Source: Candidatus Latescibacterota bacterium (GTDB lineage Bacteria > Latescibacterota > UBA2968 > GCA-2709665). From it: 64,000 nt of DNA. The position numbers and the translations under genes were made by a program. The number at the start of each line of letters is the position of its first letter. Within the stretch, counting starts at the first letter, position 1. Location: contig OZ242180.1 in the NCBI GenBank assembly GCA_965205485.1, positions 352,001 through 416,000 of the forward strand, read 5' to 3'. Shown here piece after piece: positions 33,690-53,612 of this stretch. A model generated the notes under the pieces. That model saw only the letters and a program-made list of their open reading frames with translations, made no database searches and was not told the origin of the DNA.

Positions 33690-34490
33690 ATGTCAATGCT
33701 AACTACACGCAAGGCGCCCGACCCCAAAGCCTGCGCCGTCGCCCGCGCGGTAGGCGAGGAAGTTCGCCCCGACCGGGTCATTCTGTTCGGCTCCCGCGCC
33801 CGAGGCGACTACAGCCCGCATTCGGATATCGACCTGCTCATCATCACCGACTCCGACTCCGCGGATCGGCAGGGGTATCAAGACACGAGCGTGGCAGCCC
33901 ACCGCAAGGCGGAGGAACTGTATGGCGACTTAATCGGCGTCGATCTGGTCCACCTGGGCGAAAAAGCCTTCCACGACGGTCGACGGGCGCGAAACCACGT
34001 GGCGGGCCAGGCCGTCCGCGACGGTTTTGACGGGAATGGCGACAAGGTAGACTACGACAACCCGGAACCGTCCAACTGGCCCGATATACGACAACGTGTC
34101 GCCAATGCCCGGCGGAGTCTCGGAGATCTGGTAGTCCTTGTGGAAGACTCCCGGTCTTCTCAGGAACTGATCGGGTTTACCGCACAGCAGGCGATGGAAA
34201 ACGCGCTGAAAGGGTGGATTTCGGCGCTCGACGCCGACTATCGTAACACGCATGATCTTGCGAAGCTTGCCGCAATCGTGCGACAGCATCCCAATGAAAT
34301 CCACACGCCGGCCGGTGAGAAGCTGGCGTGGCTGACCCGGTACGCTGTGCGGTACCGCTATGCAGACGCGCATGTGGTCATCGAAGACCGCGATGCGCTG
34401 CTATCGGCAGTAAAGGAGACCGTCGAAGCCATTATCGCCCGCATCCGTGCGCTGAACGCAACCGCAGCAGAGGAGCCTGGAACCGAGTAG
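33690..34490 (+). CDS. MNT (minimal nucleotidyltransferase)-HEPN fusion, copy 1 (intact)
   Basis: VILFGSRARGDYSPHSDIDLL (GSx10DxD); HEPN-like AQQAMENALKG..RNTHDL..YAVRYRY. Confidence 0.88.
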   Translation: MSMLTTRKAPDPKACAVARAVGEEVRPDRVILFGSRARGDYSPHSDIDLLIITDSDSADRQGYQDTSVAAHRKAEELYGDLIGVDLVHLGEKAFHDGRRARNHVAGQAVRDGFDGNGDKVDYDNPEPSNWPDIRQRVANARRSLGDLVVLVEDSRSSQELIGFTAQQAMENALKGWISALDADYRNTHDLAKLAAIVRQHPNEIHTPAGEKLAWLTRYAVRYRYADAHVVIEDRDALLSAVKETVEAIIARIRALNATAAEEPGTE

Positions 34491-34543
34491 GGTCGACGGT
34501 AGGTCAAGCATCCAACGCTTTATTGCGTTCGTGCATCAAGAAT

Positions 34544-34580
34544 GAGGGTCGGAGCCGCTCGAGCTCCGACCCTCGTTTTT
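34544..34580 (+). terminator. array-specific hairpin/terminator, copy 1
   Basis: GAGGGTCGGAGC-N7-GCTCCGACCCTC + T-tract; related copies at 38862, 41751 (half), 43501, 47576, 52486, 53569. Confidence 0.7.
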
Positions 34581-35133
34581 CTTGAGAATTCCTACCGCTG
34601 CTGCCGTCCCGGTTCTTGTTCCCTTCCTCACGTCGCTTTCGCCTGCCGCAAAGCCACATGCCATGACACCCGATGCCGCCAATCGGCTGGCATCGCGCTT
34701 CCTCGTCAATGACCCCTGCGAATAACCGGATTGAACCGGGCGCGTCCTGCGACTGACAAGAACATCTTAAACGTCGACTCGGGCGCGCTCACTTCCTCTA
34801 CTGGCTGAACTGCGGGATCCGTCTGGACCGATTTCCGCGCGTGGTCATTCTTCAAGACCCCATGCATAAATGGGTTCAAGTGGCGAAACGACTGTGCCGA
34901 GTATGTCCATGGTGGAAATTTCAGCAATAAATCAACAAAAACGTCCAAGAATTCAGCGCAAGTTCATCAAAAAAGTGTTAATTTTACATGCGGCGGGATT
35001 TTGCCCAACACCGAATCGTTGGCAGATTCCTGCCTGAAACGGATTTCGCCGGGCTCAAGAGGCAACATTGTCAAATGGTCTGTTAAATGCAACACAACGC
35101 GCCCGTATGATATCGGTAAGAGGAGGATTAGTC

Positions 35134-37842
35134 ATGTCATTGACACGAGGATTGCTGTTGACGATAGCCGCCCTCGCGCTGCTGGCGCTGCTGTGCCACG
35201 CCGCTATGGGTTCCGGTGCAAGCAATGGCGACGCGATGGCCCATGCGATCGGCGACGATGCCGCGTCTATTCCGGATTTCGACGGCGACGGTACCATCGG
35301 CTTTGGCGATTTCGTGAAGTTTGCTGCGAAGTTCGGCCTGGGGCAGGGTGACGACGGATATGACGCGCAGTATGATCTGAACGGCGACGGCGAAATCGGG
35401 TTTTCCGACTTTGTGCTCTTGGCGCAGAACTTTGGGAAGGACGTGCCTTCTCCAGTCGTCTCGATCCCCGATGCCAACCTGCGGACCGCGATTGAGTCTG
35501 CCCTGGGCAAGAATAGCGGCGCACCCATCACCCAGGCTGAAATGGCAACGTTGACCCACCTGTGGTCCAATGGTTCGGGAATCATCGATCTGACCGGACT
35601 GGATTTCGCCACCAACCTGACGTCGCTCAATCTTTCGCACAACAACATCGTGGATGTAAGGCCTCTGCAAAACTTAAGCAACCTGACGTTTCTGAACCTT
35701 TACGTCAACGACATTACCGATCTATCGCCACTGGCCGGCTTGAGCAACCTGACATATCTGAACCTTGCCTTCAATACCAACATAACGAATTTGTCGCCAC
35801 TGGCGCGCTTCCCTAACCTGGTATTCCTGTCACTTATCAGAACTAATGTTTCGGATTTATCGCCTCTGGTCGGCTTGAAGAACCTGGAAGAATTGCGTCT
35901 TGACGCCACCTACGTCACGGATCTTTCGCCACTGGCCAGCTTTACCAACCTGACCGAGCTGTGGCTTGGTTCCACTGAATTCGTGGACATCTCTCCCCTG
36001 GCTGGATTGACGAACCTGATGGTACTGCGACTTGACTTCGCCAAAATCACGGACGTTTCGCCGCTGGCGAACTTTGCCAACCTGACGGAACTAGACCTTG
36101 CGAACACCGATATCACGGATTTAACGCCGCTGGCCGGCTTGACCAACCTGAGGGTACTACGTCTTGAATTCACCAGAATCGCGGACATATCTCCACTTGC
36201 CGGTTTGAATCAACTCACGGAACTGGACCTTTCGGGAACCGGAATCGCTGATTTACACCCGCTGGCAAACTTCACGAACCTGACGAGACTGGGCCTTGCT
36301 GGCACCGACATAACCGATATAATGCCTCTGGCGAACTTGACAAATCTAACGCAACTGAACCTTGGGAACACCGACATCACGGATATAACGCCGCTGGCAA
36401 GCATGACTAACCTGGCGGAACTGCACCTTCACTCCAACAACATCGCGGATATATCGCCACTGTCGAACTTTACACACCTGACTAGACTTAACCTTGCCAA
36501 CAACAACATTACGGATATGTCGCCGCTGGCGAACTTTACCAATCTGACATACCTATCCGTCGCCTATAACAATTTTACGGTCACTGACATGGCGGCACTG
36601 GCAGGTTTGATCCACCTGGTTGAATTGGATCTCCGGTTCAACGGCATCACGGAAATCTCGGCGCTCTCCGGTTTGACCAATTTGGAACGGCTGAATCTTC
36701 GAGGAAATCCTCTTAGCGAACTCTCCATCTCCGAGCATGTTACTACCCTCGATAACATAGGGGTTGAGGTAGTCTTTGACTCGTTTCGCAAGGGCGACTT
36801 CGACATTGAACTTATCTTTACGGGGTCATTTGAAAAAAAGCATATGAATATGCTACAATACGTATCACGGCGCTGGATGGCGGTCATTATAGAGGAACTG
36901 CCGGACTATGAACTCATCGAGGGTTGGTCGAACAGGTGCGGCGATCACTCATTTGAGATTCCGGCAGGTGAGCGGATTGACGACCTTCGGATCTTTATAA
37001 CGACGTTCGACGTCGACGACTACCCAAACGCAGTCGGTTGGGGCGGTCCCTCCCTGGTTCGGGAGGAGACCGGTCTGCCCGTCGTGGGATGCATGGGATT
37101 CGATCTGGGACGGGCGGATCTGGAGATCACGGGGCTCCACGAACTAGGGCACGTTCTTGGGTTCGGTACGAATATATGGCACGATCGCGGCTTCCTTAGG
37201 GAATTCTCCAAGGACGACCCGAACGCGGACACACACTTCAATGGCGCTCTCGCGATCACCGCTTTCGACGACGCGGGTGGACGGGACTACTCGGGAAAAA
37301 AGGTCCCAGTACAGCAGATGGATGGGACCCACTGGAGGATACCCGCTATCAATTTCGAACTCATGACTCCGTATGGAGGCGGGTACCTGAGCGCGATCAC
37401 GGTTCAGTCCCTGGCCGATCTGGGCTATGGCGTGGACGTCACGCAAGCGGACCACTATGCCCTTCGCGCCTTGTCCGGCGCCGGCGTTGGCACGACTGCA
37501 GCAAAAATCACCCCAGACCAGACCTCGGCCACCTATCCCATTTTCGATATCAACGTGCCGTTTCCTGGCGTCAACCAAGGCGTCGATACGTACGGGCAAG
37601 AGAGAATCGGGAGGCGCTTCCATTCGACTGCCGGGAACGTCGGCCGCACCGGTCGCATGGAGAGCGCTTTGCGGATGTGGGGCGCCGACGTCACGTTCGA
37701 TCTCACGGGACACCGCCAGATGTGGGACGCGGGATCGACTGCCCACACGGCGCCTGAGCTAACCTGCGGCGCCGGGCTGATGAATGAGCCCATTTACGTA
37801 GCTGACACGCAAGGTCGTATCGTCCGTACTATCAACCGTTGA
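35134..37842 (+). CDS. secreted EF-hand/dockerin-like + ~18 LRR + leishmanolysin (M8)-like metalloprotease (A1)
   Basis: GAGGAGG RBS; signal peptide; DFDGDGTIGFGDF/DLNGDGEIGFSDF; 22-aa LRRs; HELGH...HW...ELMT...LSAITVQSLADLGY. Confidence 0.85.
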   Translation: MSLTRGLLLTIAALALLALLCHAAMGSGASNGDAMAHAIGDDAASIPDFDGDGTIGFGDFVKFAAKFGLGQGDDGYDAQYDLNGDGEIGFSDFVLLAQNFGKDVPSPVVSIPDANLRTAIESALGKNSGAPITQAEMATLTHLWSNGSGIIDLTGLDFATNLTSLNLSHNNIVDVRPLQNLSNLTFLNLYVNDITDLSPLAGLSNLTYLNLAFNTNITNLSPLARFPNLVFLSLIRTNVSDLSPLVGLKNLEELRLDATYVTDLSPLASFTNLTELWLGSTEFVDISPLAGLTNLMVLRLDFAKITDVSPLANFANLTELDLANTDITDLTPLAGLTNLRVLRLEFTRIADISPLAGLNQLTELDLSGTGIADLHPLANFTNLTRLGLAGTDITDIMPLANLTNLTQLNLGNTDITDITPLASMTNLAELHLHSNNIADISPLSNFTHLTRLNLANNNITDMSPLANFTNLTYLSVAYNNFTVTDMAALAGLIHLVELDLRFNGITEISALSGLTNLERLNLRGNPLSELSISEHVTTLDNIGVEVVFDSFRKGDFDIELIFTGSFEKKHMNMLQYVSRRWMAVIIEELPDYELIEGWSNRCGDHSFEIPAGERIDDLRIFITTFDVDDYPNAVGWGGPSLVREETGLPVVGCMGFDLGRADLEITGLHELGHVLGFGTNIWHDRGFLREFSKDDPNADTHFNGALAITAFDDAGGRDYSGKKVPVQQMDGTHWRIPAINFELMTPYGGGYLSAITVQSLADLGYGVDVTQADHYALRALSGAGVGTTAAKITPDQTSATYPIFDINVPFPGVNQGVDTYGQERIGRRFHSTAGNVGRTGRMESALRMWGADVTFDLTGHRQMWDAGSTAHTAPELTCGAGLMNEPIYVADTQGRIVRTINR

Positions 37843-38011: not shown

Positions 38012-38854
38012 ATGGCAAGGCTCCCGACATGCAACGTACCCGACCCGAAAGCCTGCGCCGTCGCCAGGGCCGTTGGCGAAGCAGTCCGCCCGGACCGGGT
38101 CATTCTGTTCGGCTCGCGCGCCCGCGGCGACTACAACCCGCATTCGGACATCGACCTGCTCATCATCACCGACTCCGATTTCACGGATCAGCAGATGTAT
38201 CAGGACACGAGCGTGGCGGCCCACCGCAAGGTCGACGAACTGTATGGCGACCTGATCGGCGTCGATCTGGTCCACCTGGGCGAGAAAGCCTTCCACGACG
38301 GTCGCCGGGCGCGAAACCATGTGGCCGGCCAGGCTGTCCGCGACGGTTTTGACGGGAATGGCGACAAGGTAGACTACGACAACCCGGAACCGTCCAACTG
38401 GCCTGACATTCGGCAGCGCATCGCCAATGCCAGGCGGAGTCTCAGAGATCTGGAAGTCCTTGTGGAAGACTCCCGGTCTTCTCAGGAGGCCATCGGGTTT
38501 CACGCCCAACAGGCAATGGAAAACGCGCTGAAGGGGTGGATTTCGGCGCTGGACTCCGACTATCGTAACACGCACGATCTGGCGAAGCTTGCCGCTATCG
38601 TTCGGCAGCATCCCGATGAAATCCACACGCCGGCCGGTGAGAAGCTGGCGTGGCTGACCCGGTACGCTGTGCGGTACCGCTATTCAGACGCGCAGGTGGT
38701 CATCGATGACCGCGATGCGCTCCTATCGGCGGTACCGGAAACCGTCGAGGCCATTATCGCCCGCATCCGTGCGCTGAATGCAGCACCGGCAAGAGGAGCC
38801 CGGGACCGAATAGGGACGACCGTAGATCCAGGCTTAACACACGGTTGCATTTGA
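38012..38854 (+). CDS. MNT-HEPN fusion, copy 2 (C-terminal +1 frameshift extends the tail)
   Basis: Highly similar to copy 1; extra A at 38791-38792 bypasses the homologous TAG at 38811-38813. Confidence 0.85.
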   Translation: MARLPTCNVPDPKACAVARAVGEAVRPDRVILFGSRARGDYNPHSDIDLLIITDSDFTDQQMYQDTSVAAHRKVDELYGDLIGVDLVHLGEKAFHDGRRARNHVAGQAVRDGFDGNGDKVDYDNPEPSNWPDIRQRIANARRSLRDLEVLVEDSRSSQEAIGFHAQQAMENALKGWISALDSDYRNTHDLAKLAAIVRQHPDEIHTPAGEKLAWLTRYAVRYRYSDAQVVIDDRDALLSAVPETVEAIIARIRALNAAPARGARDRIGTTVDPGLTHGCI

Positions 38855-38861
38855 ACAACAG

Positions 38862-38903
38862 AAACGAGGGTCGAAGTCGCTCACGCTTCGACCCTCGTTT
38901 TTC
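38862..38903 (+). terminator. array-specific hairpin/terminator
   Basis: AAACGAGGGTCGAAG...CTTCGACCCTCGTTT TT. Confidence 0.7.
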
Positions 38904-39447: not shown

Positions 39448-41658
39448 ATGTCACTAACACGAGGTTTACTGTTGTCGATAGCCGCCCTCACGCTGCTGGC
39501 AATCGTGTGTCACGCCGCAATCGACGCCAGTTCAGACGATCGGGGCGCGACAGCATCTGCCGCCACCGTCGACGCCGGCGGCGACGAAACTGCGTCAATT
39601 CCCGACTTCGATGGCGACGGCACGATCGGCTTTAACGACTTCGTGAAATTTGCAGCCAAGTTCGGCCTGGGTCAGGGCGATGACGGATATGACGCGCGGT
39701 ACGATCTTAACGGCGACGGCGAGATCGGGTTTTCGGACTTTGTCATCTTCGCGCAGAACTTCGGCAAAGAGGTGGCTTCACTGGTCTCGATCCCGGATGC
39801 AAACCTGCGGGCCGCGATTGAGGCGGCTCTGGGCAAGGCCAGCGGCGCACCGATAACAAGGGCTGAAATGAAGTCTTTGGACGCTCTAACCGCGCCAGGC
39901 TGGGAGTGGCCCGGCATCGCCGATCTGACAGGGCTGGAGTCGGCGATCAACCTGACGTTCCTGCATCTCAGCCATCAAGAGCTGACGGACGTGTCGTCAC
40001 TAGCCAGCTTGACGAAACTGACAGAGCTGCATCTCGGATTCAACAGGATCAGGGATTTATCGGCACTGAGGAACCTGGCTGACCTGAAAACGCTCTACCT
40101 GAGAAGTAACAGGCGCGTGGATCTGTCGACTCTTGCCGGTTCCGGCTTGGCCAAACTGGAAACCCTCTGGCTTGGGATCAACAACCTCACGGACGTATCG
40201 GCGCTGGGAAACTTGGCCAGCCTGACAGAATTGGAACTTGATCATAACAACCTCGCGGATGTAACCGTACTTTCCGGCTTGACCAACCTGAGAATCCTAC
40301 GGCTTGACGACAACGATCTTACGGACGTGTCGGCTCTCGGACGCTTGAACAAACTGGAAACCTTGAGGATTGGTTTCAACAGGATCACGGACGTATCGGC
40401 ACTGGGAGACCTGGCTAACCTGACAGAGCTGGACCTTAGAGCTAACAGCCTCCTGGACGTGTCCGCGCTGGGAGTCCTGACCCGCTTGACAGATCTGAAT
40501 CTTGCATTCAACAACATCACGGACGTTGTGACACTGAGCGGTTTGACGCGGCTGACTGAGCTGGATCTTCGGGGAAACCCTCTGAACGTATCCTCCATCA
40601 GCCGACAAATCCCCTCGCACAAGCGCAACGGAGCGACGGTACACTTCGACTCATTCCAAAAAGGCGACTTCGACATCGAACTCGTTTTTCTCGATGAATT
40701 CACTGCAGGTCAGAAAAATGTGATCCGATATGCGACTCGGCGCTGGATGTCGATCATTACAGAGGACCTGCCGGATTATGAGTTTACCGAAGGTTGGTCG
40801 GACGGATGTGGCGATCAGTCGTTCGATATCGCATCCGGGGAGCGGATAGACGACCTGCGAATCTATGCGGTCAGCCACGAAGAGGGTCCACTCGGGTGGG
40901 CTGGTTCATCGGTGTTGCGAGAGACCCATCTGTCCGTCGTCGGATGCATGTCCTTCAACATGCAATCCACTGATCTGCTGAACGTAGCGCTCCATGAAAT
41001 AGCGCACGTCCTTGGGTTCGGTCCGATCTGGGACGATCTCGGCTTCTATCAGAATCCGCCAGACGGAGACGAGTACTTCAACGGTCCACTTGCAATCGCG
41101 GCCTTCGATGAAGCCGGGGGACGAAACTACCCTGGTGCGAAGGTGCCGTTGGCTGATCCTGGGCACTGGAGTTACTCGGTGCTTGCGGGCGAAATTATGG
41201 CGCCTTCTGCGATTGGGGGGGCGCTGAGCGCGATTACGGTTCAGTCCCTAGCCGATCTCGGCTACGGCGTGGACGTCTCCCAGGCGGACCCCTATACCCT
41301 GCCCGGCGCCAACACAGGAGCGAAGATCGCCGTCGCACCGCCAGGCGATACAGGCTTTGGCGTAAAGAGCTTCCGCCCGCACGTCTTCACGCAATCGGGC
41401 GCGATTCAGGATGGTCAAGAATCAATCGAAGGGAGACTGCACTCAGGTTCGACAGACGCCCGGACCAGTCGCCTGGAGAGCGTTAAAAGGCTGTCGGACC
41501 GCGGCATCACGTTCGATCTCGCGAGGAATCACCAGATGGGGGACGCGGGATCGACTGCTCATGCAGCGCCTGAGCCAACCTGCGGCGCCGGGCTGATGGA
41601 TGAACCCATCTACGTCGTTGATCAGCAGGGGCGTATCGTACGGACTATCGTACGCTAA
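39448..41658 (+). CDS. secreted EF-hand/dockerin-like + ~11 LRR + M8-like metalloprotease (A2)
   Basis: GAGGAGG RBS; same architecture as A1; HEIAH...HW...EIMA. Confidence 0.85.
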   Translation: MSLTRGLLLSIAALTLLAIVCHAAIDASSDDRGATASAATVDAGGDETASIPDFDGDGTIGFNDFVKFAAKFGLGQGDDGYDARYDLNGDGEIGFSDFVIFAQNFGKEVASLVSIPDANLRAAIEAALGKASGAPITRAEMKSLDALTAPGWEWPGIADLTGLESAINLTFLHLSHQELTDVSSLASLTKLTELHLGFNRIRDLSALRNLADLKTLYLRSNRRVDLSTLAGSGLAKLETLWLGINNLTDVSALGNLASLTELELDHNNLADVTVLSGLTNLRILRLDDNDLTDVSALGRLNKLETLRIGFNRITDVSALGDLANLTELDLRANSLLDVSALGVLTRLTDLNLAFNNITDVVTLSGLTRLTELDLRGNPLNVSSISRQIPSHKRNGATVHFDSFQKGDFDIELVFLDEFTAGQKNVIRYATRRWMSIITEDLPDYEFTEGWSDGCGDQSFDIASGERIDDLRIYAVSHEEGPLGWAGSSVLRETHLSVVGCMSFNMQSTDLLNVALHEIAHVLGFGPIWDDLGFYQNPPDGDEYFNGPLAIAAFDEAGGRNYPGAKVPLADPGHWSYSVLAGEIMAPSAIGGALSAITVQSLADLGYGVDVSQADPYTLPGANTGAKIAVAPPGDTGFGVKSFRPHVFTQSGAIQDGQESIEGRLHSGSTDARTSRLESVKRLSDRGITFDLARNHQMGDAGSTAHAAPEPTCGAGLMDEPIYVVDQQGRIVRTIVR

Positions 41659-43500: not shown

Positions 43501-43540
43501 ACGAGGGTCGAAGCCTCTCATGTTTCGACCCCGCTTGTTT
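43501..43540 (+). terminator. array-specific hairpin/terminator
   Basis: GGGTCGAAGC..GTTTCGACCC followed by T-rich sequence. Confidence 0.6.
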
Positions 43541-43713: not shown

Positions 43714-44020
43714 GCATCGACGTCGTTCTGCCGGCCTTTCGGCATTACCCGTATCAAAGATCTGAATTGTGTTGCTCGGAACAAACTCAGCACAATTCGA
43801 CAAACAGCCGATGTTGAACGCCGATTCCGCGATTTGTTCCATTACAGAACCTAAGGAACTCTACAGGAACCAGATTTTCCGACCAGCCAGAATGTTGAGT
43901 CGCGTCGCACCATTCCTGCGGCATCGATGACTCTGGCCGCGCAGAAATCTTGGAATCGCGAACAGGAGGGTTCGCATAATGACTTACTCAATGGTCGCGA
44001 TATGCACTGCCGCCCTCGCG
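43711..44020 (+). repeat. duplicated leader/promoter/start block (second copy ~50590-50899)
   Basis: Colinear, roughly 85% identical by eye through the RBS and first codons of A3 and B2. Confidence 0.85.
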
Positions 44021-46405
44021 GTGTTGGCATTCGTATGCGTCCTCGATATTGGCGCGAGTTCAGCAGATGATTCGGCGGTGTCCAATGTGGTTTCCGTCGA
44101 TGCCGTTGGCGACGATACCGCGTCTATTCCCGATTTCGACGGTGACGGGACGATCGGCTTTGGCGATTTCGTGAAGTTTGCGGCAAAGTTCGGCCTGGCG
44201 CAGGTCGATGATGGATATGACGCGCTGTACGACCTGAATGGAGATGGCGAGATCGGGTTTTCGGACTTCGTGCTCTTCGCGCAGAATTTCGGCAAAGAGG
44301 TGCCCTCCGAGCCAGTGACTATCCCGGATGCAAACCTGCGGGCGACAATCGAGGATGCTCTGGGTAAGGACGGCGATGCTCCCATCACCGAGGCCGAGAT
44401 GGCAACACTGGATAGTCTTGAGGCAAACGACGCCAACATCAGCGATTTGACAGGGCTGGAGTTTGCCACCAAACTGTCATACCTGAACCTTGCCAGTTGG
44501 TCAAGTGACGACCTTCCTGACAACAACATCACGGACATCTCGGCACTGGCAGGGTTGACAAGCCTGGAAACACTGCGGCTTGGAGATAACAACGTCACGG
44601 ACATCTCGGCACTGGCAAACCTAACCAACCTGAGACGCCTGGATCTACAATTCAACAGAATTTCGAACATCTCGGCGCTTTCAGGCTTGACAGAGTTGAC
44701 ATTCCTGAAGCTCGGCTACAACAATCTTACACTTTTTGAAGAGGACCTCCGTCCGACGCCTGAAAACAGCGGCATCGCGGATATTTCGCCGCTTTCAGGC
44801 TTGACCAACCTGACTGTGCTTGAGCTTCAGTACAACAACATTGCGGACATCTCTGCGCTATCGGGTTTGACCAAACTGGGGCATCTCATCCTTCAGGTCA
44901 ACCCCATCGAGGACATCTCGGCGTTGTCAGGCCTGGCCAACCTGTATAACCTGATCTTTGGGGCCAACGACATTACGGATATCTCGGCGCTTTCGGGCCT
45001 GACCAACTTGCGATGGCTGATACTTGAAGCCAACAGCATTGCGGATCTATCGCCATTGGCAGGCTTAAGGAGAATCGAATCCCTGGACCTTAACCGCAAC
45101 GACATCACGAATATTTCACCATTATCCGGCTTGACCGGTCTGACGAGGCTGAATTTATCCTACAACAAGATTTCGGACATCTCGGCACTAACGGGTCTGA
45201 CCAACCTTACGCGGCTGGAACTCTGGTTAAACAAAGTCAAGGAGATATCGCCACTTCGTGGCTTGACCAACTTGACTGAGTTGGAAGTTCGTTGGAACCC
45301 CCTGAATGACCGTTCCCTCAACGAACACATTCCCGCCCTCGAAAACCGTGGTGTTTCGGTATTCTATACCAGGCTTGGTAAGGGCGATTTCGACATTGAG
45401 CTCGTCTTTACCGATGACTTCAGTGAAGATGAGAAGGATGTACTACGGCTCGTTGCCCGGCGCTGGATGTCTGTGATTTCGACGGACCTCCCGGACTATA
45501 CATTCGCCGAGGGCTGGTCCGGTCAATGCGGTGACCAGTCGTTTACGATCCCCGCCGGCGAGCGGATAGACGACCTCCGCATCTATATGACCACGTTCGA
45601 CGTCGACGACAGCCCTAATGCTGTAGGGTGGGGTTCCCCCCGTCTGGTGCGCGAGCAGAACCATCTGCCCGTTTTAGGATGTATGGGGTTTGACCTGGAA
45701 CGGGCAAATCTGCTGATTACAGGGCTTCACGAAATTGGGCACGTCCTCGGGTTTGGTACGACCTGGAACGATCTCGGCTTCTATCAGAACCCGCCGGAGG
45801 GAAATGAGCACTTCAACGGTCCGCTGGCGATCTCGGCCTTCGACGACGCGGGCGGGCGAAATTACCAGGGTGCGAAGGTTCCGTTGGCTGATCCGGCGCA
45901 CTGGAGCGGCGACGTGTTCGGGCATGGCGAACTCATGTTGCCCTGGGGCGGAGGCGCGTTAAGCGCGATCACGATCCAATCTCTGGCCGATCTGGGCTAC
46001 GGCGTGGATGTCACGCAGGCCGACCCATATATGCTGCACCAGCACGGTGCCGCCGGTAAGGCAGTCGCGACGATCGCCGTCGCAACGCCCGCCATTCCAA
46101 GCCTTGGCGAAAACGATTACCGGCTGGACATCCTCATGCAATCTAGCGCCGAGCGGTACGTCCAAGGATCGATTGAGGGGAGAAAACCCTTGGGTCTCGC
46201 AGATGGCAGAACCAGTCGGCTGGTGATCGCTGAATGGATGTGGGGCCACGGCAACACGTTCGATCTCGCGGGAAACGTCCAGGCGTGGGAGGCGGGATCC
46301 ACTGCCCTGGCGGCACCTGAGCTAACATGCGGCGCCGGGCTGATGGATGATCCCATTTACGTAGTCAATCCACAGGGACGTATCGTCCGCACGATAAACC
46401 GGTGA
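43979..46405 (+). CDS. secreted EF-hand/dockerin-like + ~13 LRR + M8-like metalloprotease (A3)
   Basis: AGGAGG RBS; HEIGH...HW...ELML; two LRRs carry loop insertions. Confidence 0.85.
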   Translation: MTYSMVAICTAALAVLAFVCVLDIGASSADDSAVSNVVSVDAVGDDTASIPDFDGDGTIGFGDFVKFAAKFGLAQVDDGYDALYDLNGDGEIGFSDFVLFAQNFGKEVPSEPVTIPDANLRATIEDALGKDGDAPITEAEMATLDSLEANDANISDLTGLEFATKLSYLNLASWSSDDLPDNNITDISALAGLTSLETLRLGDNNVTDISALANLTNLRRLDLQFNRISNISALSGLTELTFLKLGYNNLTLFEEDLRPTPENSGIADISPLSGLTNLTVLELQYNNIADISALSGLTKLGHLILQVNPIEDISALSGLANLYNLIFGANDITDISALSGLTNLRWLILEANSIADLSPLAGLRRIESLDLNRNDITNISPLSGLTGLTRLNLSYNKISDISALTGLTNLTRLELWLNKVKEISPLRGLTNLTELEVRWNPLNDRSLNEHIPALENRGVSVFYTRLGKGDFDIELVFTDDFSEDEKDVLRLVARRWMSVISTDLPDYTFAEGWSGQCGDQSFTIPAGERIDDLRIYMTTFDVDDSPNAVGWGSPRLVREQNHLPVLGCMGFDLERANLLITGLHEIGHVLGFGTTWNDLGFYQNPPEGNEHFNGPLAISAFDDAGGRNYQGAKVPLADPAHWSGDVFGHGELMLPWGGGALSAITIQSLADLGYGVDVTQADPYMLHQHGAAGKAVATIAVATPAIPSLGENDYRLDILMQSSAERYVQGSIEGRKPLGLADGRTSRLVIAEWMWGHGNTFDLAGNVQAWEAGSTALAAPELTCGAGLMDDPIYVVNPQGRIVRTINR

Positions 46406-46722: not shown

Positions 46723-47521
46723 ATGACAAAGTTCCGGACACGCAACGCACCGGACCCGAAAGCCTGCGCCGTCGCCCGTGCTGTCGGCGAAGCGGTCCGC
46801 CCGGACCGGGTCATTCTGTTCGGCTCTCGAGCCCGGGGCGATTACCGCACGAATTCGGACATCGACCTGCTCATCATCACCGACTCCGATTCCACGGATC
46901 GGCGAGAGTATCAGGATACGAGCGTGGAAGCCCACCGCAAGGTCGAGGAAGTGTACGGCGTTTCAATCGGCGTCGACCTGGTACGTCTGAGCGAGCGGGC
47001 CTTCCACGAGGGTCGCCGGGCGCGAAACCACGTGGCAGGCCAGGCCGTCCGCGACGGTTTTGACGGGAACGGTGACAAAGTAGACTACGATAACCCGGAG
47101 CCGTCCAACTGGCCCGACATACGGCAGCGCATTGCCAATGCTGAGCGGGAACTCGGCGTTCTAAAGGTCCTCGTAAAGGCCAAATCCGCTCAGGAAGCCA
47201 TCGGGTTTCACGCACAGCAGGCAATCGAAAACGCGCTGAAAGGGTGGATTTCGGCGCTCGACGCCGACTATCGTAAACACGCATGATCTTGCGAAGCTTG
47301 CCGCAATCGTGCGGCAGCATCCCGATGAAATCCACACGCCGGCCGGTGAGAAGCTGGCGTGGCTGACCCGGTACGCTGTGCGGTACCGCTATTCGGACGC
47401 AGAGGTGGTGATCGAATACCGCGATGCGCTGCTATCGGCAGTAAAGGAGACCGTCGAAGCCATTATCGCCCGCATCCGTGCGCTGAACGCAACCGCAGCA
47501 GAGGAGCCTGGAACCGAATAG
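46723..47521 (+). pseudogene. MNT-HEPN fusion, copy 3, frameshifted in HEPN
   Basis: CGTAAACAC (47272-47280) versus CGTAACAC in copies 1 and 2; MNT part intact; C-terminal part continues as ORF 47309-47521. Confidence 0.85.
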
Positions 47522-47575
47522 GGACGACAGGTCTTCTGCAGGCTTCCAAATACATCCGATGTAGGTGGCAGATTC

Positions 47576-47620
47576 AAGGGTCGAAGCCGCACAAGCGCGC
47601 TTCGACCCTTCTTGTTTTTC
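47576..47620 (+). terminator. array-specific hairpin/terminator
   Basis: AAGGGTCGAAGC...GCTTCGACCCTT + T-tract. Confidence 0.7.
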
Positions 47621-47761: not shown

Positions 47762-47786
47762 GTGGGGCAGACTTTCCTGTCTGCCC
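47762..47786 (+). repeat. REP-like palindrome
   Basis: GTGGGGCAGACTTTCCTGTCTGCCC. Confidence 0.7.
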
Positions 47787-48257
47787 GCCTCCAGGTCGTT
47801 CTGCCGGCCATTCTCCATCACCCGTACCCACGCCTTCCCATCTCAATTGGGTCTTTTTTCCGATGTATGCGTCGGCAGCCCGCCATGCGGCGCCGGACCC
47901 ATCCGGAGCCGATCAAAAATGCTGCATTGGATAGATGGCACGTATTTATCATAAAAAATATCTATATATCACTATATTATCATGTATCTGGTTACTATAT
48001 TATGGCTTATTCGTAAACAGGTCGCACGGAGTCCCGGATGTCCAGGGCATCCTGAAGGACCCCGTAACTACCGATGCATGGATTCGCAAGATTCCCGTGC
48101 GCAATAACGGCTACAATCAAACAATGACCAAACGAATAAACCTTACAGTAACAACATGCCTGACCCGGCAGAGTAGAGCGCCGCGTCTCTCCATTCAGGC
48201 AGCATCGTAGACTTTGGCCGTATCGAAATCTCCGACTCACGAGAGGGGGATGGAATC

Positions 48258-50579
48258 ATGACTGTCTGGAAATGCGTAATGGGTATTGCCACGCTCGTGC
48301 TGCTGGCAGTCGTGTGCTACGCCGCAATCGGCGCTGATTCAGTCGGTGGTGCGGTAACAGCACACTCGATCTCCGTCGACGAAAGCGGCGAGGATACCGC
48401 GACTATTCCCGACTTCGACGGCGACGGGACGATCGGGTTTGGCGACTTTCTGATCTTCGCGGGCGTGTTCGGAGCGAGCCAGGGGGACGAGAAGTACGAC
48501 GCCACGTACGATTTGAACGGCGATGGGGAGATCGGGTTTTCCGACTTTGTGATCTTCGCACAGAACTTCGGAAAGGACGCACCCTCCCCGGCCGTCGTCA
48601 TCCCCGACGTCAACCTCCGCGCGGCGATTGAGGCGGCCTTGAACAAGGCGAGAGGCACGACGATCACCCTGGCCGAAATGAAGACTCTATACCACCTGCA
48701 GGCAAGAGACGCGGATATTAGCGATTTGGCTGGCCTGGAGTCTGCCACTAACCTGACGAGCCTTGATCTCTCGAGCAACAACATCACGGACCTCACGGCG
48801 CTTGCGGGCTTGACCAACCTGAGATCATTGAACCTTTTCCGAACGAACATCTCTGACCTCTCTGCACTTGCGGGCTTGACCAGTCTGACACGGCTGTATC
48901 TTTGGTACAACAATATCACCGACCTCCTGGCACTTGAGGGCCTGGCCAACCTGAGACAATTGGCCCTTAACGACAACAATATTTCGGACCTCACGGCACT
49001 CTCCGGCTTGACCAACCTGACGTGGCTGGACCTTTCCGGAACCAACGCTTCGGACCTCACGGCGCTTGGGGGTTTGACCAACCTGAAGTGGCTGGACCTT
49101 TCTGTAACCAACGTCACGGACCTCACGGCGCTTTCCGGCTTGACCAACCTGACAGAGCTGGACCTTTACCAAACCAACATCACGGACCTCTCGGCGCTTG
49201 GGAGTTTGACCAACCTGACGTGGTTTGACCTTTCCGCAACCAACATCACGGACCTCTCGGCGCTCTCCGGCTTGACCAAACTGACATGGTTAGATCTTTC
49301 CATAACCAACATTACGGAACTCTCGGCGCTTTCCGGCTTGACCAAACTGACAGAGTTGGACCTTTTCCTGACCAACATCACGGACCTCTCGGCGCTTTCT
49401 GCCTTGACCGACTTGAAAAGGCTGTATCTCTCGGGAACCAACACATCGGACCTCTCGGCGCTTTCCTCCTTGCCCAACCTGAAGGAGCTGACCCTTTGGG
49501 AAAACCCCCTGAGCTTCACCTCCATCAACGATCATATTCCCGCCCTTCGGGCTCGAGGCGTTACAGTACTCTTCGACCCGACCCCGTTGCGAGAGAGAGA
49601 GTTCAACATCGAGCTCGTGTTCCTCACCAACCAGTTCGATGAGACCCGGAAGAATGTGCTCCGATTCGCGGCACGGCGGTGGATGTCGGTGATAACAGAG
49701 GATCTGCCGGACTATACATTTACACAGGGCTTGTCGGGTCAGTGCGGCGATCATTCCTACGCGATCCCTTCCGGGGAGCGGATAGACGACCTGCGTATTT
49801 ACATAACCAGCATTCCTCGCGAGCAATACTTCGGTGCGTGGGGTCGGCCACATCTCTTGCGCGAGGAGACCCATCTGCCTGTCGTGGGCTGCATGGCGTT
49901 CGGCTTGCGCTTCGCCATTTCGCTGATTTCAGGGCTTCACGAGATCGGGCACGTTGTGGGGTTCGGCGGGCCGGTCTGGGCCCAGACCGGCTTCCGTCAG
50001 AACCTGTCCTGGGACGACCCGAATGCCGACACGCACTTCAACGGCCGGCTGGCAGTTGCGGCCTTCGACGACGCGGGCGGGCGGGCTTACACGGGTGCGA
50101 AGGTGCCTGTGGCGAAGATGGATGGGTCGCACTGGAGGGGTTCTGTGTTCGGGTCTTTTGGGCCGGAATCCCAACTTGAACTCATGACGCCTGGCGGGGG
50201 AAGGGCGCTCAGCGCGATCACGGTGCAGTCCATGGCCGATCTCGGCTACAGCGTGGATGTCTCCCAGGCTTACCCATTTACCCTGCCGTTGGTGCCTTCA
50301 GGCGCGAAGACCGCCGTCGCAACGCACGCCGTTCCGGACGTCCAGGGTTCAATCCAGGCGAGACCGCTCTTGGATCCCGCAGACGACCGGACCAGTCTGC
50401 TGGAAGGCGCTGAACGGGTGTGGGGCATTGGCATCGAGTTCAGCGATGGCTACGCGACGGGGCATCCCGGCGTGCCAGCCGTGGCAGAGCATGAGCTTAA
50501 ATGCGGCGCCGGGCTGATGGATGAACCCATCTACGTAGTAGATCAGCAGGGGCGCATCGTACGGACGATCAGCCGGTGA
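48258..50579 (+). CDS. secreted EF-hand/dockerin-like + ~13 LRR + M8-like metalloprotease (A4)
   Basis: HEIGH...HW...ELMT; LRRs visible as near-identical 66-bp DNA repeats at ~48980-49460. Confidence 0.85.
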   Translation: MTVWKCVMGIATLVLLAVVCYAAIGADSVGGAVTAHSISVDESGEDTATIPDFDGDGTIGFGDFLIFAGVFGASQGDEKYDATYDLNGDGEIGFSDFVIFAQNFGKDAPSPAVVIPDVNLRAAIEAALNKARGTTITLAEMKTLYHLQARDADISDLAGLESATNLTSLDLSSNNITDLTALAGLTNLRSLNLFRTNISDLSALAGLTSLTRLYLWYNNITDLLALEGLANLRQLALNDNNISDLTALSGLTNLTWLDLSGTNASDLTALGGLTNLKWLDLSVTNVTDLTALSGLTNLTELDLYQTNITDLSALGSLTNLTWFDLSATNITDLSALSGLTKLTWLDLSITNITELSALSGLTKLTELDLFLTNITDLSALSALTDLKRLYLSGTNTSDLSALSSLPNLKELTLWENPLSFTSINDHIPALRARGVTVLFDPTPLREREFNIELVFLTNQFDETRKNVLRFAARRWMSVITEDLPDYTFTQGLSGQCGDHSYAIPSGERIDDLRIYITSIPREQYFGAWGRPHLLREETHLPVVGCMAFGLRFAISLISGLHEIGHVVGFGGPVWAQTGFRQNLSWDDPNADTHFNGRLAVAAFDDAGGRAYTGAKVPVAKMDGSHWRGSVFGSFGPESQLELMTPGGGRALSAITVQSMADLGYSVDVSQAYPFTLPLVPSGAKTAVATHAVPDVQGSIQARPLLDPADDRTSLLEGAERVWGIGIEFSDGYATGHPGVPAVAEHELKCGAGLMDEPIYVVDQQGRIVRTISR

Positions 50580-50857: not shown

Positions 50858-52330
50858 ATGACTTACTTAAAGGTCGCGATATGTACTGCCGCCCTCGCGC
50901 TATTGGCATCCATATTCGTCGCCGCTATCGGCGTCAGTTCAGACTATGGTGGCGCGACAGCATCTGCGATCTCCGTCAACGGCATCGGCAACGATACAGC
51001 ATCCATTCCCGACTTCGACGGCGACGGGACCATCGGATTCGGCGATTTTCTCATCTTCTCGGGCGCGTTTGGCTCGCGCCAGGGCGACGAAAAGTACGAC
51101 GCCACGTACGATTTGAACGGTGATGGGGAAATCGGGTTTTCCGACTTTGTGATCTTCGCACAGAACTTCGGAAAGGACGCGCCCTCCCCGGTCGTCGCCT
51201 TTGCTGATCCGGAGATCTATAATGACAACGTATTTGTCTTACCTGTAAAAGAGGACCTTGCCGCAGGTGGTCTTCCACTGCGCGAGTATGGTGCGCGATT
51301 CTTCAGGTATTTCAACGATGAGTTTGATTTTCTGGTGTTCATCCCCAGCTTGCGTATAGATCAGCTTGATTCCGGAGCTTTCGTAGGAGCCTTTTACAGT
51401 CATGTAAGAAACGATGTGCAAGGGATCGGCCTGGAGTCTTTTTCCAATGGAGATTGGGGATCTTCCAGGAAACTGCAGGGTGTGGTATTTCTCTCCCACG
51501 GTGTAGTCACGGAGTTCAGCCGGGGCCTTTGGGATTCCGAGCGTCTGTATTCCAATTTGATTGAGGGGCCGCTTCTGCACGAATTAACTCACCGCTGGGC
51601 AAACTTCCTTGACATTGTACCTCGACCATATACCGTGCATTGGGGCTTCAGCAGCGCCAACGGCGTTCTTGGGGGTTTTGACATTGCCAGCTTGGTCGAC
51701 CATGGGAACGGGCGGTACCGCAGCTCTAGTGAGTTCAATCCCGTAGGGGTCTACAACAAACTCCTTAGTCCTATCGAATTGTACCTGGCGGGATTCATAC
51801 CACCGGTTGAAGTTCCTGACCTCTGGGTTGCGGAGGACGCCAAGCCGGTTGCTGAGGACTGGGGGCCGCTTTCCGACATAAACGAAAACTGGGTTTCCTG
51901 GGATTTCAGGTCTTTCTCGGCAAGTCAAGTAAGGACGTATACAATCAAGGACATCATCACCAAGAAAGGCCCGCGTGTTCCCGACTATTCGCAGGCACAG
52001 AAGGATTTCCGAGCAGCCGTTATTCTTCTGATCACTGAAGAGTACCCGGCGACCCGATGGGTGCTGGAGAATCTGAGCGGGGACGCATCCTTGTTCAGCT
52101 ACGCGGGTGAAGACGAGTTTGACTTGTGGTACAATTTCTATGAAGCAACCGGCGGCAGGGCCACGATCAGCATGGACGGTCTGTCACAATTCCGACGAAG
52201 TGCTGGTGCAAGCAAGCCCGCGTCCAGTTCATTCGGTACGCCACGACCGCCTGTCGTGGATCATTGGGATGATCGCGAAGATCCCGGCGGCACGTCGAAA
52301 CACTATTCGGCGGAAGTGGAACAACCGTGA
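50858..52330 (+). CDS. secreted EF-hand/dockerin-like + unclassified HEXXH metallopeptidase (B2)
   Basis: Paralog of B1: HELTHRW...HWG, SPIELYLAGFIPP, NFYEATGGR. Confidence 0.75.
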   Translation: MTYLKVAICTAALALLASIFVAAIGVSSDYGGATASAISVNGIGNDTASIPDFDGDGTIGFGDFLIFSGAFGSRQGDEKYDATYDLNGDGEIGFSDFVIFAQNFGKDAPSPVVAFADPEIYNDNVFVLPVKEDLAAGGLPLREYGARFFRYFNDEFDFLVFIPSLRIDQLDSGAFVGAFYSHVRNDVQGIGLESFSNGDWGSSRKLQGVVFLSHGVVTEFSRGLWDSERLYSNLIEGPLLHELTHRWANFLDIVPRPYTVHWGFSSANGVLGGFDIASLVDHGNGRYRSSSEFNPVGVYNKLLSPIELYLAGFIPPVEVPDLWVAEDAKPVAEDWGPLSDINENWVSWDFRSFSASQVRTYTIKDIITKKGPRVPDYSQAQKDFRAAVILLITEEYPATRWVLENLSGDASLFSYAGEDEFDLWYNFYEATGGRATISMDGLSQFRRSAGASKPASSSFGTPRPPVVDHWDDREDPGGTSKHYSAEVEQP

Positions 52331-52716
52331 CACGCGGTCGAATTCAAGATGTAGGCACGTTGTTCGTACGAAAAGCCGGTGATCGATTGCGATTCCGCAC
52401 CTGTGGACCCAGCTTCCGCTCATCAATTTTTGGAGGTCCAGCACCAGGCGACTGATGACGGCACATAGACCGCACATCAAGCTATAAGGATTGAGGCTTT
52501 GTCTAGAAGCCTCGACCCTTTACTACAAAGGGGAAAATTGGCGCAAACCGCAAATTGCCGGGTGATCTCGGGGGCTTGACGTACATAAGCACAATTAAAT
52601 ACATTTGTGCATTGAATTCCCGAACCAGGTGACTCGGCAATTCGATCGTGTTCGTGTCGCCAAGACGACAGAGTGAATGGAAAACGGCCGTGCGGAACAG
52701 AAGGTCTACGTCGTTT

Positions 52717-53514
52717 ATGGCAAAACTCCCAACACACAAAGCACCCGACCCGAAAGCCTGCGCCGTCGCCCGGGCGGTTGGCGAAGCGGTCCACCCGGAC
52801 CGGGTCATCCTGTTCGGCTCGCGCGCCCGCGGCGACTAGAACCCGCATTCGGATATCGACCTGCTCATCATCACCGACTCCGATTCCACGGACAAGCAGG
52901 AGTATCAGGACACGAGCGTGGCAGCCCACCGCAAGGCGGAGGAATTGTACGGCGACTTGATTGGCGTTGATTTGCTCACCCTGAGCGAGAAAGCCTTCCA
53001 CGACGGTCGCCGGGCGCGAAACCACGTGGCTGGCCAGGCCGTACGGGACGGTTTTGACGGGAACGGTGACAAATTAAACTACGAAAACCCGGAACCGTCC
53101 AACTGGCCGGACATACGGCCGCGCATCGCCAACGCCGAGCGGGAACTCGGCGTTCTAAGAATTCTCTTAGATGCCAAATCCGCTCAGAAAGCCATTGGGT
53201 TTCACGCGCAGCAGGCACTTGAGAACGCGCTGAAGGGCTGGATCTCCGCGCTCGACACAGACTACGGAAATACCCACGATCTGGCGACGCTTGCCGCTAT
53301 CGTGCGACAGCATCCCAATGAAGACCCTACCCCGGCCGGTGAGAAGCTGGCGTGGCTGAGCCAGTACGCTGTGCGGTACCGCTATGCAGACGCGCAGGTG
53401 GTCATCGATGATCGCGATGCGCTGCTTTCGGCGGCGACCGAAACCGTTGACGCAATTATCGCCCGCATACGTGCGCTGAATGCAGCACCGGCAGAGGAGC
53501 CTGGAACCGAATAG
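52717..53514 (+). pseudogene. MNT-HEPN fusion, copy 4, nonsense mutation in MNT
   Basis: Tyr TAC -> TAG at 52837-52839 within GSRARGD(Y); downstream frame intact to 53514. Confidence 0.85.
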
Positions 53515-53568
53515 GGACAACAGGTCTTCTCCGCGTTTTCGGATGAGTATGATGTACCTAGCAGATTC

Positions 53569-53612
53569 AAGGGTCGAAGCCGCTTACGCGCTTCGACTCT
53601 TTTCGTTTTTCT
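53569..53612 (+). terminator. array-specific hairpin/terminator
   Basis: AAGGGTCGAAGC...GCTTCGACTCTT + T-tract. Confidence 0.7.

Follow-up and report, generated by a model that had tools for sequence, protein, structure and literature searches.

A recombining exoprotease island between phoX and lon in a Candidatus Latescibacterota genome, with a candidate repertoire of fused MNT-HEPN paralogues of distinct dimer or cleft specificity

Organization of the phoX-lon interval

The window, a stretch of 64 000 nt, comes from an uncultured lineage, some named members of which are sponge symbionts (PMC12993501), and a sponge may also be the habitat of the source genome. Within it, an array of fused MNT-HEPN genes (MH) and secreted protease genes lies between phoX (32238..33605, + strand) on the left and lon (53842..56337, − strand) on the right, both of which are conserved, with lon convergent to the array. 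The gene order given by the original prediction, MH1-A1-MH2-A2-B1-A3-MH3(psi)-A4-B2-MH4(psi), with every gene on the + strand, was borne out by our analysis, and all array features below are on that strand.

MH1 (33690..34490) is an intact gene of 266 aa with an S-type segment and an intact GSx10DxD motif. It contains a conversion-resistant segment at 34107..34184 (codons 140-165, the end of HEPN helix 1, the loop and the start of helix 2), which is a predicted dimer interface, and a 100-nt block at 34387..34486 that is identical to 47418-47517 and is the crossover site of a 13,031-bp gain or loss. MH2 (38012..38854) is also S-type (segment 38429-38506), and its +1 shift near 38791 changes only the last residues of the C-terminal tail. 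The two remaining copies are apparent A-type pseudogenes, MH3 (46723..47521, segment 47140-47214) with a +1 frameshift near 47275 and MH4 (52717..53514, segment 53134-53208) with a TAG at 52837-52839 within MNT. No contig among the matches listed contradicts the breaks in MH3 and MH4, and one listed contig stops one base before the MH4 TAG.

Of the proteases, A1 (35134..37842) encodes a signal region, a dockerin-like tag (DOC), an internalin-type LRR and an M8-like zincin domain (HELGH). A2 (39448..41658, HEIAH), A3 (43979..46405, HEIGH) and A4 (48258..50579, HEIGH) are likewise DOC-LRR-M8-like proteases, and B1 (41952..43370) and B2 (50858..52330) join DOC to an unnamed HExxH...H domain with no LRR. 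We inferred the start codons of A1, A2 and B1.

A terminator-like hairpin, overlooked in the original prediction, stands behind every MH copy (34538..34580, 38862..38900, 47576..47610 and 53569..53601, the last facing the convergent lon), with an orphan copy ahead of A3 (43505..43531). The DNA around this orphan (43504-43753) is 74 % identical to that behind MH3 and, judged by this likeness, is probably the trace of a lost fifth MH. As originally predicted, no integrase, transposase or reverse transcriptase was found by Pfam scan among 11 + 55 ORFs, and the genome's two tyrosine recombinases lie away from the array at 1.88 and 2.86 Mb. An Rfam scan of the window gave zero matches, promoter and terminator scans gave counts not above those of shuffled sequence, and no run with the array was found among the RNA matches listed.

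The MNT-HEPN genes

The MH copies had been described as near-identical, but their pairwise CDS identity is 83.2-89.4 %, with patches from 64 % to 100 %. They had also been likened to HepT/MntA, an assignment that does not hold, as their HEPN is of the PF05168/class II kind without the conserved Rx4HxY. Both PF01909 and PF05168 scored above the Pfam cut-off, no other HEPN family (PF01934/PF08780) was matched, and the Atlas clusters of MH carry PF01909+PF05168 at 0.94-0.95. The best 80 of 511 relatives were sampled. GSx10DxD is present in MH1-3 and almost invariant across 25 aligned copies. At most ~8/64 representatives have a His at position +5 or +6 relative to the R of YRY, and the R-x4-H of MH1 is not conserved among aligned relatives. 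H187, the alternative His between helices 2 and 3, is invariant in the 25 copies and kept in 78/86 family representatives, and Y223, near the C-terminal motif, is found in 63/66 ungapped sequences; no conserved HEPN Cys was seen in the MH alignment. Foldseek matched the HEPN part to 1wol, 1ufb, 2hsb and 3o10 with probability 0.99-1.0 and TM(target) 0.56-0.67, with no match at E<=0.001. A PDB sequence search with MH returned MNT-motif matches only, and comparison with the PADLOC anti-phage systems gave only short matches across the NTase motif (PDC-S09 and others).

On these sequence criteria MH is a fused class II (HEPN-T, PF05168) MNT-HEPN, and not HepT/MntA or FhepTA. Going by the parts of PMC3710099 (HEPN-T) and PMC7641770 (class II) available to us, MH shares with class II HEPN/MNT (PF05168/PF01909) the domain pair, GSx10DxD, the lack of Rx4HxY, the conserved Tyr and the alternative His between helices 2 and 3, but differs in being a single fused gene whose paralogues form tandem arrays and which has a typed segment resistant to conversion. 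Within those same parts, PMC3710099 records fusions to MNT for HEPN-T, and PMC7641770 (2020; 9,583 sequences) describes class II as without biochemical study at that time. FhepTA of Shewanella (PMC13000451) also has the MNT-HEPN order in one chain, of 276 aa compared to 266 in MH; there, MNT blocks HEPN dimerisation, the protein AMPylates itself, and proteolysis releases it, with Lon named. We offer this as a working model for MH by analogy. However, FhepTA carries R-phi-xxx-H-x-Y and two redox cysteines and resides on mobile elements, whereas both motifs are absent from MH, which has no mobile element next to it, and the main text of PMC13000451 makes no mention of 'tandem'.

The dockerin-tagged proteases

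Divergence among the proteases had been placed mostly in their LRR and catalytic parts. This stands for the LRRs (50-53 % identity) but not for the catalytic part (58-68 % in A, 56 % in B), which the regional identities make the second most conserved, after DOC (73-94 %) and ahead of the signal region (31-62 %). Shuffling among the proteases, also part of the original prediction, was supported by a tree of the DOC tags from 13 island protease genes, a subset caught by pattern, in which the 3 B genes do not form one clade (AU p 4e-7); the DOC of B2 is 94 % identical to that of A4. A patch in A2 (20 listed substitutions in run X4, of which 14/20 sites equal A3) was set aside, as it could be either conversion or a misplaced paralogue contig.

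Peptidase_M8 (PF01457) was matched by A2 (23.7 bits against a cut-off of 21) and below cut-off by A1, and was not listed for A3 and A4; HExxH, a later His and an ELM, which we take to be a Met-turn, are conserved in all four A genes. These features are shared with leishmanolysin-like M8 metallopeptidases, with internalin LRRs in addition, yet the A genes are bacterial, dockerin-tagged and have a shorter catalytic domain. The LRRs matched internalin models below cut-off, and the A-type catalytic domain has 833 homologues, of which nearly all among the matches listed are LRR-linked. A PDB sequence search gave no match for either the A or the B catalytic domain. In the B domain, H130, E131, H134 and H150 are invariant in 42 sequences; in a wide fold search its best match (Z 4.5) was to unrelated folds, with metzincin-type chains at Z 2.9-3.7 over 128-165 aligned residues and no match above background, and the Atlas gave unnamed clusters only. 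As regards a cellulosome-type dockerin/cohesin display, Dockerin_1 was above cut-off in B2 only, and the genome has 85 DOC ORFs and 2 cohesin matches over cut-off. The proteases would act on host or environmental proteins, and the LRRs may choose their substrates.

Variation of the island and crossover within MH

The original prediction had proposed comparing the phoX-lon interval among relatives, and across 15 genomes of the genus its structure was found to vary. Its length ranges from about 2 to 30 kb, and A/B proteases are present in 8 genomes, absent in 6 and, in 1, the interval is interrupted by a contig end. In the relative G014 a lone MH equals MH1 at 99-100 % from nt ~300 and then, after the identical block, continues into the DNA downstream of MH3. 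The same form, lacking 13,031 bp, was found in contigs of two other studies (runs X5 and X10, one contig each), where 34386 is joined to 47418 with 100 letters fitting either side; this junction is the single 100-nt block where MH1 equals MH3. The event may have been either a gain or a loss. G014 is 97-98 % identical to our genome at 48-52 kb (98 % in the 48-50 kb bin, A4), compared to 82-95 % in the flanks. The MH copies themselves are mosaic, with 42 informative sites falling into 11 runs compared to 26.5 after shuffling (0/20000 shuffles). The interval is thus variable in structure, with a crossover inside MH and swapping of DOC tags. MH very probably serves as a crossover site, and the picture originally predicted, a variable repertoire driven by recombination in which MH supplies the homology for crossover, is supported by the mosaic copies, the 13,031-bp junction and the variable interval.

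We envisage a hypervariable phoX-lon island that gathers secreted dockerin-tagged proteins of A-type and B-type. Homologous recombination would add, remove and swap its units, even across species boundaries, acting at two kinds of internal repeat, MH together with the hairpin behind it and the DOC tag, ~190 bp long, that each cargo gene carries. With no recombinase nearby, a RecA-type mechanism is presumed. A known class comprises flexible genomic islands of the replacement type and tandem gene arrays driven by homology. These share with the present array the variable cargo, the conserved flanks, the lack of an integrase and homologous exchange between species, but the internal homology here is supplied by a TA-like gene and by a tag for secretion or anchoring. 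The island is a case, mapped to the exact base, in which secreted protease genes are gained or lost without a recombinase and pass between species.

MH had also been seen as a driver of the array, but it is in all probability dispensable for protease arrays. Long runs of DOC genes in G011, G013 and G004 have no full MH between genes, and the source genome holds further tandem DOC clusters without any MH; a protease array would by itself be ordinary for this genome. Nor is a dedicated MH-protease system supported, as an A-type protease (E<=1e-50) lies beside MH in only 7/31 MH-bearing genomes and protease-free MH arrays of 3-5 copies each exist elsewhere. Our literature search, which took in few subscription papers, found no description of the island or of typed MNT-HEPN paralogues; the supplements of PMC7641770 and PMC13000451 may list such fusions.

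A conversion-resistant segment

MH paralogues within a genome are alike except for a patch of ~25 codons (~140-164; HEPN helix 1, loop and helix 2). Within-genome distance at codons 141-160 is 0.36-0.39; windows lying wholly outside the segment give 0.04-0.15 in family-2 arrays and 0.08-0.22 in family 1. The segment occurs as types S, A, D, G and P, which are common to several species. The nearest neighbour of a copy lies in the same genome for 17/35 copies by the rest of the gene and for 4/35 by the segment, and co-resident copies share a type in 4/36 pairs, compared to 10.5 when permuted (p 0.001). The five copies of G022 form one clade by the rest of the gene (support 99), which is rejected in the segment (p 3e-9).

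The divergence peak recurs in 4/6 held-out tandem pairs of distant homologues, with differing codons falling inside the segment at 18/21 (L114), 14/26 (L095), 17/62 (G080) and 19/91 (L086); it is absent from G058 (4/27, p 0.42) and the second G056 pair (12/105, p 0.43). G053, G058 and G080 are kin and not independent. L068 was excluded from these pairs, having been part of the initial divergence analysis; a gapped comparison of its copies 2 and 3 gave 33/56 nt. Two further treatments of the types were dropped. Common ancestry across families was set aside since an AU test does not reject family monophyly in the segment (p 0.36), and type sharing across families therefore rests on motif likeness, while a count of type changes on the segment tree was circular.

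The part of PMC3924837 available to us takes divergence peaks amid gene conversion as an accepted mark of selection. In its example, primate red/green opsin exon 5, paralogues are likewise homogenised save for a short, functionally selected stretch; MH differs in being bacterial, in having 4-5 types and in recurring at a homologous site in a second phylum. We consider it somewhat the likelier reading that the patch is kept by selection, although pN/pS in the segment is only about 0.5. The copy directly 3' of phoX in family 1, where typed, is always S, so S and A may simply be two old paralogues. Nor is more than one type required in every case, since neither A-type copy of this genome is intact and a lone MH is found in many relatives.

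The main alternative, which we regard as unlikely although it accounts for several of these observations, is that MH is a neutral passenger duplicated with its neighbours, the patch being an old heterology that conversion has not crossed, in a weakly constrained loop. Interspersed copies decay, a 3-nt indel separates S from the rest of the types, conservation of the segment among family representatives is weak, and 2/6 held-out pairs have no peak. However, A, D and G are of equal length and remain distinct, and copying of the whole segment does happen, copies 2 and 4 of G022 differing there by 1.4 %. Three family-2 arrays have 12/12 copies full length, with differing type orders and one type repeated, and equally variable stretches elsewhere in the L095 and L114 proteins show no comparable peak.

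Predicted dimer interface and possible role

A HEPN homodimer model scored 0.59 compared to 0.00 for the best control, with runs agreeing in at least 70 % of contacts and pLDDT of at least 67; the mark used is reached by 20/30 solved dimers and 1/23 monomers, and passing it may reflect memory of solved HEPN dimers. The confident predicted interface, MH1 codons 142-164, coincides with the divergence peak, although covariation of type blocks in the 24-row alignment could itself draw interface residues together.

MH multiplies in tandem, independently of the proteases, with gene conversion homogenising all but the patch. Selection would keep the types because this stretch would make up the interface of the HEPN dimer and thereby decide partner choice or the form of a composite cleft, giving non-interchangeable paralogues that are most likely self-inhibited, RNA-directed stress or defence effectors. 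That dimer-partner specificity is the reason types persist is a tentative proposal. It is similarly possible, but short of probable, that fused class II MNT-HEPN proteins are self-inhibited effectors with the patch as an exchangeable specificity key at the dimer interface, and that at least two phyla keep keyed tandem sets against conversion, so that dimers, orthogonal or combinatorial, would differ in their partners, targets or triggers, the same gene acting here as recombination anchor of an interspecies exoprotease island. On balance we favour the broader reading of a recombining exoprotease island together with a putative MH paralogue repertoire of distinct dimer or cleft specificity. Natural paralogue pairs, up to 96 % identical and differing mostly in the predicted interface patch, are ready-made controls with which the role of the patch, and of the class II HEPN/MNT family, can be asked.

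Alternative explanations

MH could instead be a domesticated nucleotidyltransferase (KNTase/ANT-like) that modifies small molecules or proteins, its HEPN serving to bind the substrate, with types for different substrates and arrays that widen detoxification. The intact GSx10DxD would suit such an enzyme, ANT/AadA enzymes top a weak Foldseek list (E>=2e-3), and the portion of PMC3710099 available to us has MNT-fused HEPN as usually without RNase residues and probably inactive. We think this quite improbable, as the HEPN part matches PF05168 and the HEPN-T structures 1wol, 1ufb and 2hsb, the alternative HEPN-T histidine is retained, and ANT models fall far under cut-off.

TA cassettes are known to stabilise superintegrons against deletion, and the original prediction allowed that MH might shield protease units in this manner, as an addiction module. 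Several genomes do have MH or its hairpin where units meet, different types might conceivably fail to neutralise one another, and MH adjoins DOC-LRR genes in 7/14 fetched family-2 second loci with at most one MH copy. Yet most of the interspersed copies are broken (MH3, MH4, three remnants in G008 and remnants in G003, G001 and G013), the form without 13 kb occurs naturally, long cargo runs have no MH, loss of the single chain removes toxin and antitoxin at once, and Rx4HxY is absent, all of which makes protection from deletion very unlikely.

More doubtful still is a site-specific cassette system of the integron kind that would recombine at the hairpin. The hairpin is specific to the locus, is found 5 times within the array and, in G008, G011 and G003, persists between cargo units from which MH has gone. 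Its structure, however, is a simple stem with a T-run behind it, no attC boxes were seen by eye against the general attC motif, and it is not matched in family-2 loci. The mapped crossover lies inside the MH coding block and not at the hairpin, and of integron hallmarks there was no recombinase in the window, no PF00589 gene near the array and no Rfam match in the window.

That the repeats are an assembly artefact, as the original prediction had cautioned, is barely credible: no single contig among those listed spans the whole array and the best-covered sample may itself be the source of the assembly, but MH copies only 83-89 % identical are not collapsed or duplicated reads, similar arrays occur in relatives, 30/30 coverage bins are present in runs of two samples (one study), and exact or 1-mismatch contigs, present in two samples, cross the MH1-A1, A1-MH2, A3-MH3 and B2-MH4 junctions.

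Typed segment of the MNT-HEPN genes

An alignment set of 43 proteins and 51 DNA copies of the fused MNT-HEPN gene (MH) revealed that paralogues within a genome are homogenized except at codons ~140–164, where the within-genome distance (0.36–0.39) exceeds the between-genome distance; in nearly all other windows the within-genome distance is the smaller. Segment sequences sort into types S, A, D, G and P. In family 1, which includes the array genus, one S and one A were seen in each of the eight genomes that have two typed copies on the same contig, and arrays of a second family of the order (family 2) read G-A-S-A-D, P-D-G-S and A-G-S. The window reads S-S-A-A, its two A copies being broken. 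Of 36 within-genome pairs, 4 were of the same type compared to 10.5 under permutation, a count that includes related, non-independent genomes, and type sharing across families had no statistical support (p 0.36). The copies of G022, a family-2 genome, formed one clade by the rest of the gene and were rejected as a clade by the segment. Both pS (0.51–0.57, compared to 0.10–0.33 elsewhere) and pN (0.24–0.29, compared to 0.015–0.08) rise in the segment, which marks it as an old divergence shielded from conversion and not as a product of fast positive selection. Divergence peaks under gene conversion are described as a selection signature in PMC3924837. The loose family-wide conservation of the segment and the unsupported type sharing across families count against maintenance of the types by selection.

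Six tandem pairs of distant fusions, three of them 29–35 % identical to the first window copy (MH1), were tested with the segment fixed beforehand. Differing codons peaked inside it at L114 (18 of 21), L095 (14 of 26), G080 (17 of 62) and L086 (19 of 91), and no peak was seen in the G058 pair (4 of 27) or the second G056 pair (12 of 105). Locus L095 displayed a His/Ser toggle at the residue before a conserved Ala-Gln, where MH genes of the array lineage have His/Thr. The two tandem copies at this locus (L095:6963–8774, genome G054) share one 604-aa open frame, which is either two types joined in a double fusion or the product of an indel error. G056, from the Dehalococcoidia, had 11 matches to fused MNT-HEPN, including one triple and one pair.

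MH comprises the Pfam domains NTP_transf_2 and HEPN PF05168. PMC7641770 classifies pairs of PF05168 and PF01909 as class II; these lack Rx4HxY, have a conserved Tyr and, as of 2020, had no biochemical study. PMC3710099 assigns PF05168 to HEPN-T, describes a His located between helices 2 and 3 as the alternative, and regards HEPNs fused to MNT as inactive for the most part. This His is kept in 78 of 86 representatives of the MH family, the Tyr is kept too, and no conserved Rx4-6H was found among these representatives. The original prediction's comparison with the toxin–antitoxin pair HepT/MntA was thus not upheld, and identity with FhepTA, the fused MNT-HEPN of Shewanella, was rejected because of the same residues (FhepTA as described in PMC13000451). 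According to that source, FhepTA RNase activity needs HEPN dimerization, which MNT blocks; MH may work in the same way. The closest named holders of MH (best 80 of 511 relatives) carried the label Ca. Latescibacterota (Gemmatimonadota in two cases, Bryobacterales in one), then Dehalococcoidia, and Atlas look-alike clusters were commonest in Chloroflexota and Poribacteria.

A monomer model places the segment in HEPN, where it takes in the last part of helix 1, the loop and the first part of helix 2. When two copies of the HEPN domain were modelled together, the score was 0.59 (best of three controls, 0.00), with ≥70 % of contacts agreeing between runs and pLDDT ≥67; the mark applied was attained by 20 of 30 dimers with solved structures and by 1 of 23 monomers. 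All confidently placed interface residues lie in MH1 codons 142–164, and the model supports a HEPN dimer through the segment, with the caveats that HEPN dimers have already been solved and that linked variation in the alignment may bias contacts. The simplest mechanism would be that the segment type determines which partner is chosen or how the cleft is shaped, in which case tandem copies would be functionally distinct rather than an extra dose. We consider it possible, if somewhat doubtful, that fused class II MNT-HEPNs are self-inhibited effectors whose helix-1/loop patch is a dimer-interface specificity key, that keyed tandem paralogues are kept against conversion in at least two phyla to give orthogonal or combinatorial dimers that differ in partners, targets or triggers, and that in the array genus MH doubles as a recombination anchor of the island. 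No description of a typed, conversion-resistant interface patch in such paralogues was found in the literature searched; the patch makes the function of the family directly testable.

Recombination at the phoX–lon interval

An ORF and Pfam scan recovered the ten array genes as originally described, MH1-A1-MH2-A2-B1-A3-MH3(psi)-A4-B2-MH4(psi) (A and B being secreted protease genes), all on the + strand and flanked by phoX and a convergent lon. A +1 frameshift interrupts MH3, MH4 contains an in-frame TAG and MH2 a late +1 shift; a terminator-like hairpin lies 3' of every MH, with a fifth, orphan copy 5' of A3. As had been noted, no mobility gene was found among the 66 ORFs scanned, and the genome's two tyrosine recombinases lie >1.4 Mb from the array. 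The source genome is a single contig (5.13 Mb, 97 % complete), and contigs from two samples covered all 30 bins and crossed four gene junctions with 0–1 mismatch, which argues against an assembly artefact. Dispersed REP-like repeats were observed at 43670–43730, 47734–47807, 53638–53683 and 53768–53796 (18–32 matches elsewhere in the genome), one being a palindrome with 14-bp arms.

The MH copies, previously called near-identical, are only 83.2–89.4 % identical pairwise. The recombination scan found them to be mosaic, with 42 informative sites in 11 runs compared to 26.5 in shuffles. The G014 locus reads phoX-MH-A4-B2-lon, and its MH is 99–100 % identical to MH1 from nt ~300, runs through a 100-nt block in which MH1 equals MH3 (34387–34486 and 47418–47517) and continues as the DNA 3' of MH3. 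One contig each in X5 and X10, runs of two other studies, has the same 13,031-bp joint, although the X5 contig may come from the material of G014 itself and coverage in X10 is low (depth 2.9). Given this joint and the mosaic copies, MH is crossover homology for a 13,031-bp gain or loss.

The locus was retrieved for each of the other 14 genomes in the genus. The phoX–lon interval is hypervariable, ranging from ~2 kb (G002, G012) to ~30 kb (G004). Of the 15 genomes, eight have A- or B-type proteases there, six gave none and one is cut by a contig end. G014 and the window are 97–98 % identical over A4-B2 compared to 82–95 % in the flanks, suggesting that A4-B2 was recently exchanged between species. 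The tag preceding the protease domains, a dockerin-like domain (DOC), is 73–94 % identical among the six proteases; those of A4 and B2 are 94 % identical even though the catalytic domains behind them are unrelated, and a clade of the tags of three B genes was rejected (p 4e-7; 13 genes caught), so DOC itself recombines. With the variable structure and the G014 joint, this bears out the predicted recombining protease repertoire, and the island is a variation on a familiar type.

The TPR/CsgG-like gene and phoX (window 31085–33605; L028, L030–L034) swap order, as MH-TPR-phoX-MH or MH-phoX-MH-TPR, the TPR gene being less conserved among relatives (64–80 %) than phoX (89–96 %). The island is closed by lon (53842–56337), and no lon was seen in the fetched DNA of family-2 MH loci. 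Lon is named in PMC13000451 as a possible FhepTA activator; its position here may be chance.

Relation of MH to the protease units

MH had been proposed to supply homology for shuffling and/or to protect units from deletion. The first part holds in that MH is one source of homology, but it is not needed, as G011, G013 and G004 have long runs of DOC genes with no full MH between them. Protection was not borne out on present evidence: in G008 MH survives only as 5' remnants, at least two directly followed by the hairpin, and the 13,031-bp-shorter form exists. In the source genome the MH fusion is confined to the array, compared to 85 DOC ORFs and several tandem DOC clusters. Within the order, MH was found in 31 of 53 genomes and A-type matches (25) in 11 of 53, 17 of them within or next to the MH locus and eight at other sites. 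An A-type match adjoins MH in only 7 of the 31, and family-2 arrays of five (G022), four (G034) and three (G026) full-length copies were protease-free. The Dehalococcoidia locus L068 has three MH copies. One point favouring a link is that, of 14 fetched family-2 loci with ≤1 MH copy, 7 have DOC-LRR genes next to MH, although most of these represent one orthologous site. On present evidence, MH is neither necessary nor protective for protease arrays.

A 3-kb contig labelled Bryobacterales (L067:1–3176) combines an LRR, an A-type catalytic domain and a 71 % identical MH in the same arrangement, through transfer or mis-binning. A rhodanese-like ORF, named by eye, lies within the five-copy array of G022 (L037:7580–8097).

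Predicted secreted proteases

The A genes encode a signal region (by eye), DOC, internalin-type LRR and an M8-like HExxH domain, and nearly all of the 120 listed among 833 homologues are LRR-linked. Identity is 58–68 % (A) and 56 % (B) in the catalytic domains and 50–53 % in the LRR. The B domain matched no Pfam family; H-E-x-x-H and a later His were invariant in 42 sequences, and its model was confident (pTM 0.80), with no clear match in a fold search. Its 529 homologues include fusions to what we take, from Pfam accessions, to be LRR, CARDB, cadherin, fn3 and Ig-like domains. Proteolysis by the A and B proteins, and their substrates, are presumed. Eukaryote-like proteins, LRR proteins among them, have been reported from Latescibacterota of sponges (PMC12993501), and the source organism may be a sponge symbiont.

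Outside the window, tandem DOC clusters lie in the source contig at 3240567–3254152, 1928272–1941610, 1203607–1233555 and 122542–134214; one example has six ~720-aa paralogues in a row, rich in WD-like motifs. Two cohesin matches exceeded the cut-off (447236–447598 and 1917823–1918188 of the contig), in ORFs that also have a DOC match and are candidate partners of the DOC tags. Run X4 differed from the assembly at 41133–41286, in the A2 catalytic region, by at least 20 clustered substitutions (14 of 20 listed match A3), and X1 and X4 differed at ≤9 clustered sites at 45110–45235, in the A3 LRR region, with three amino-acid changes.
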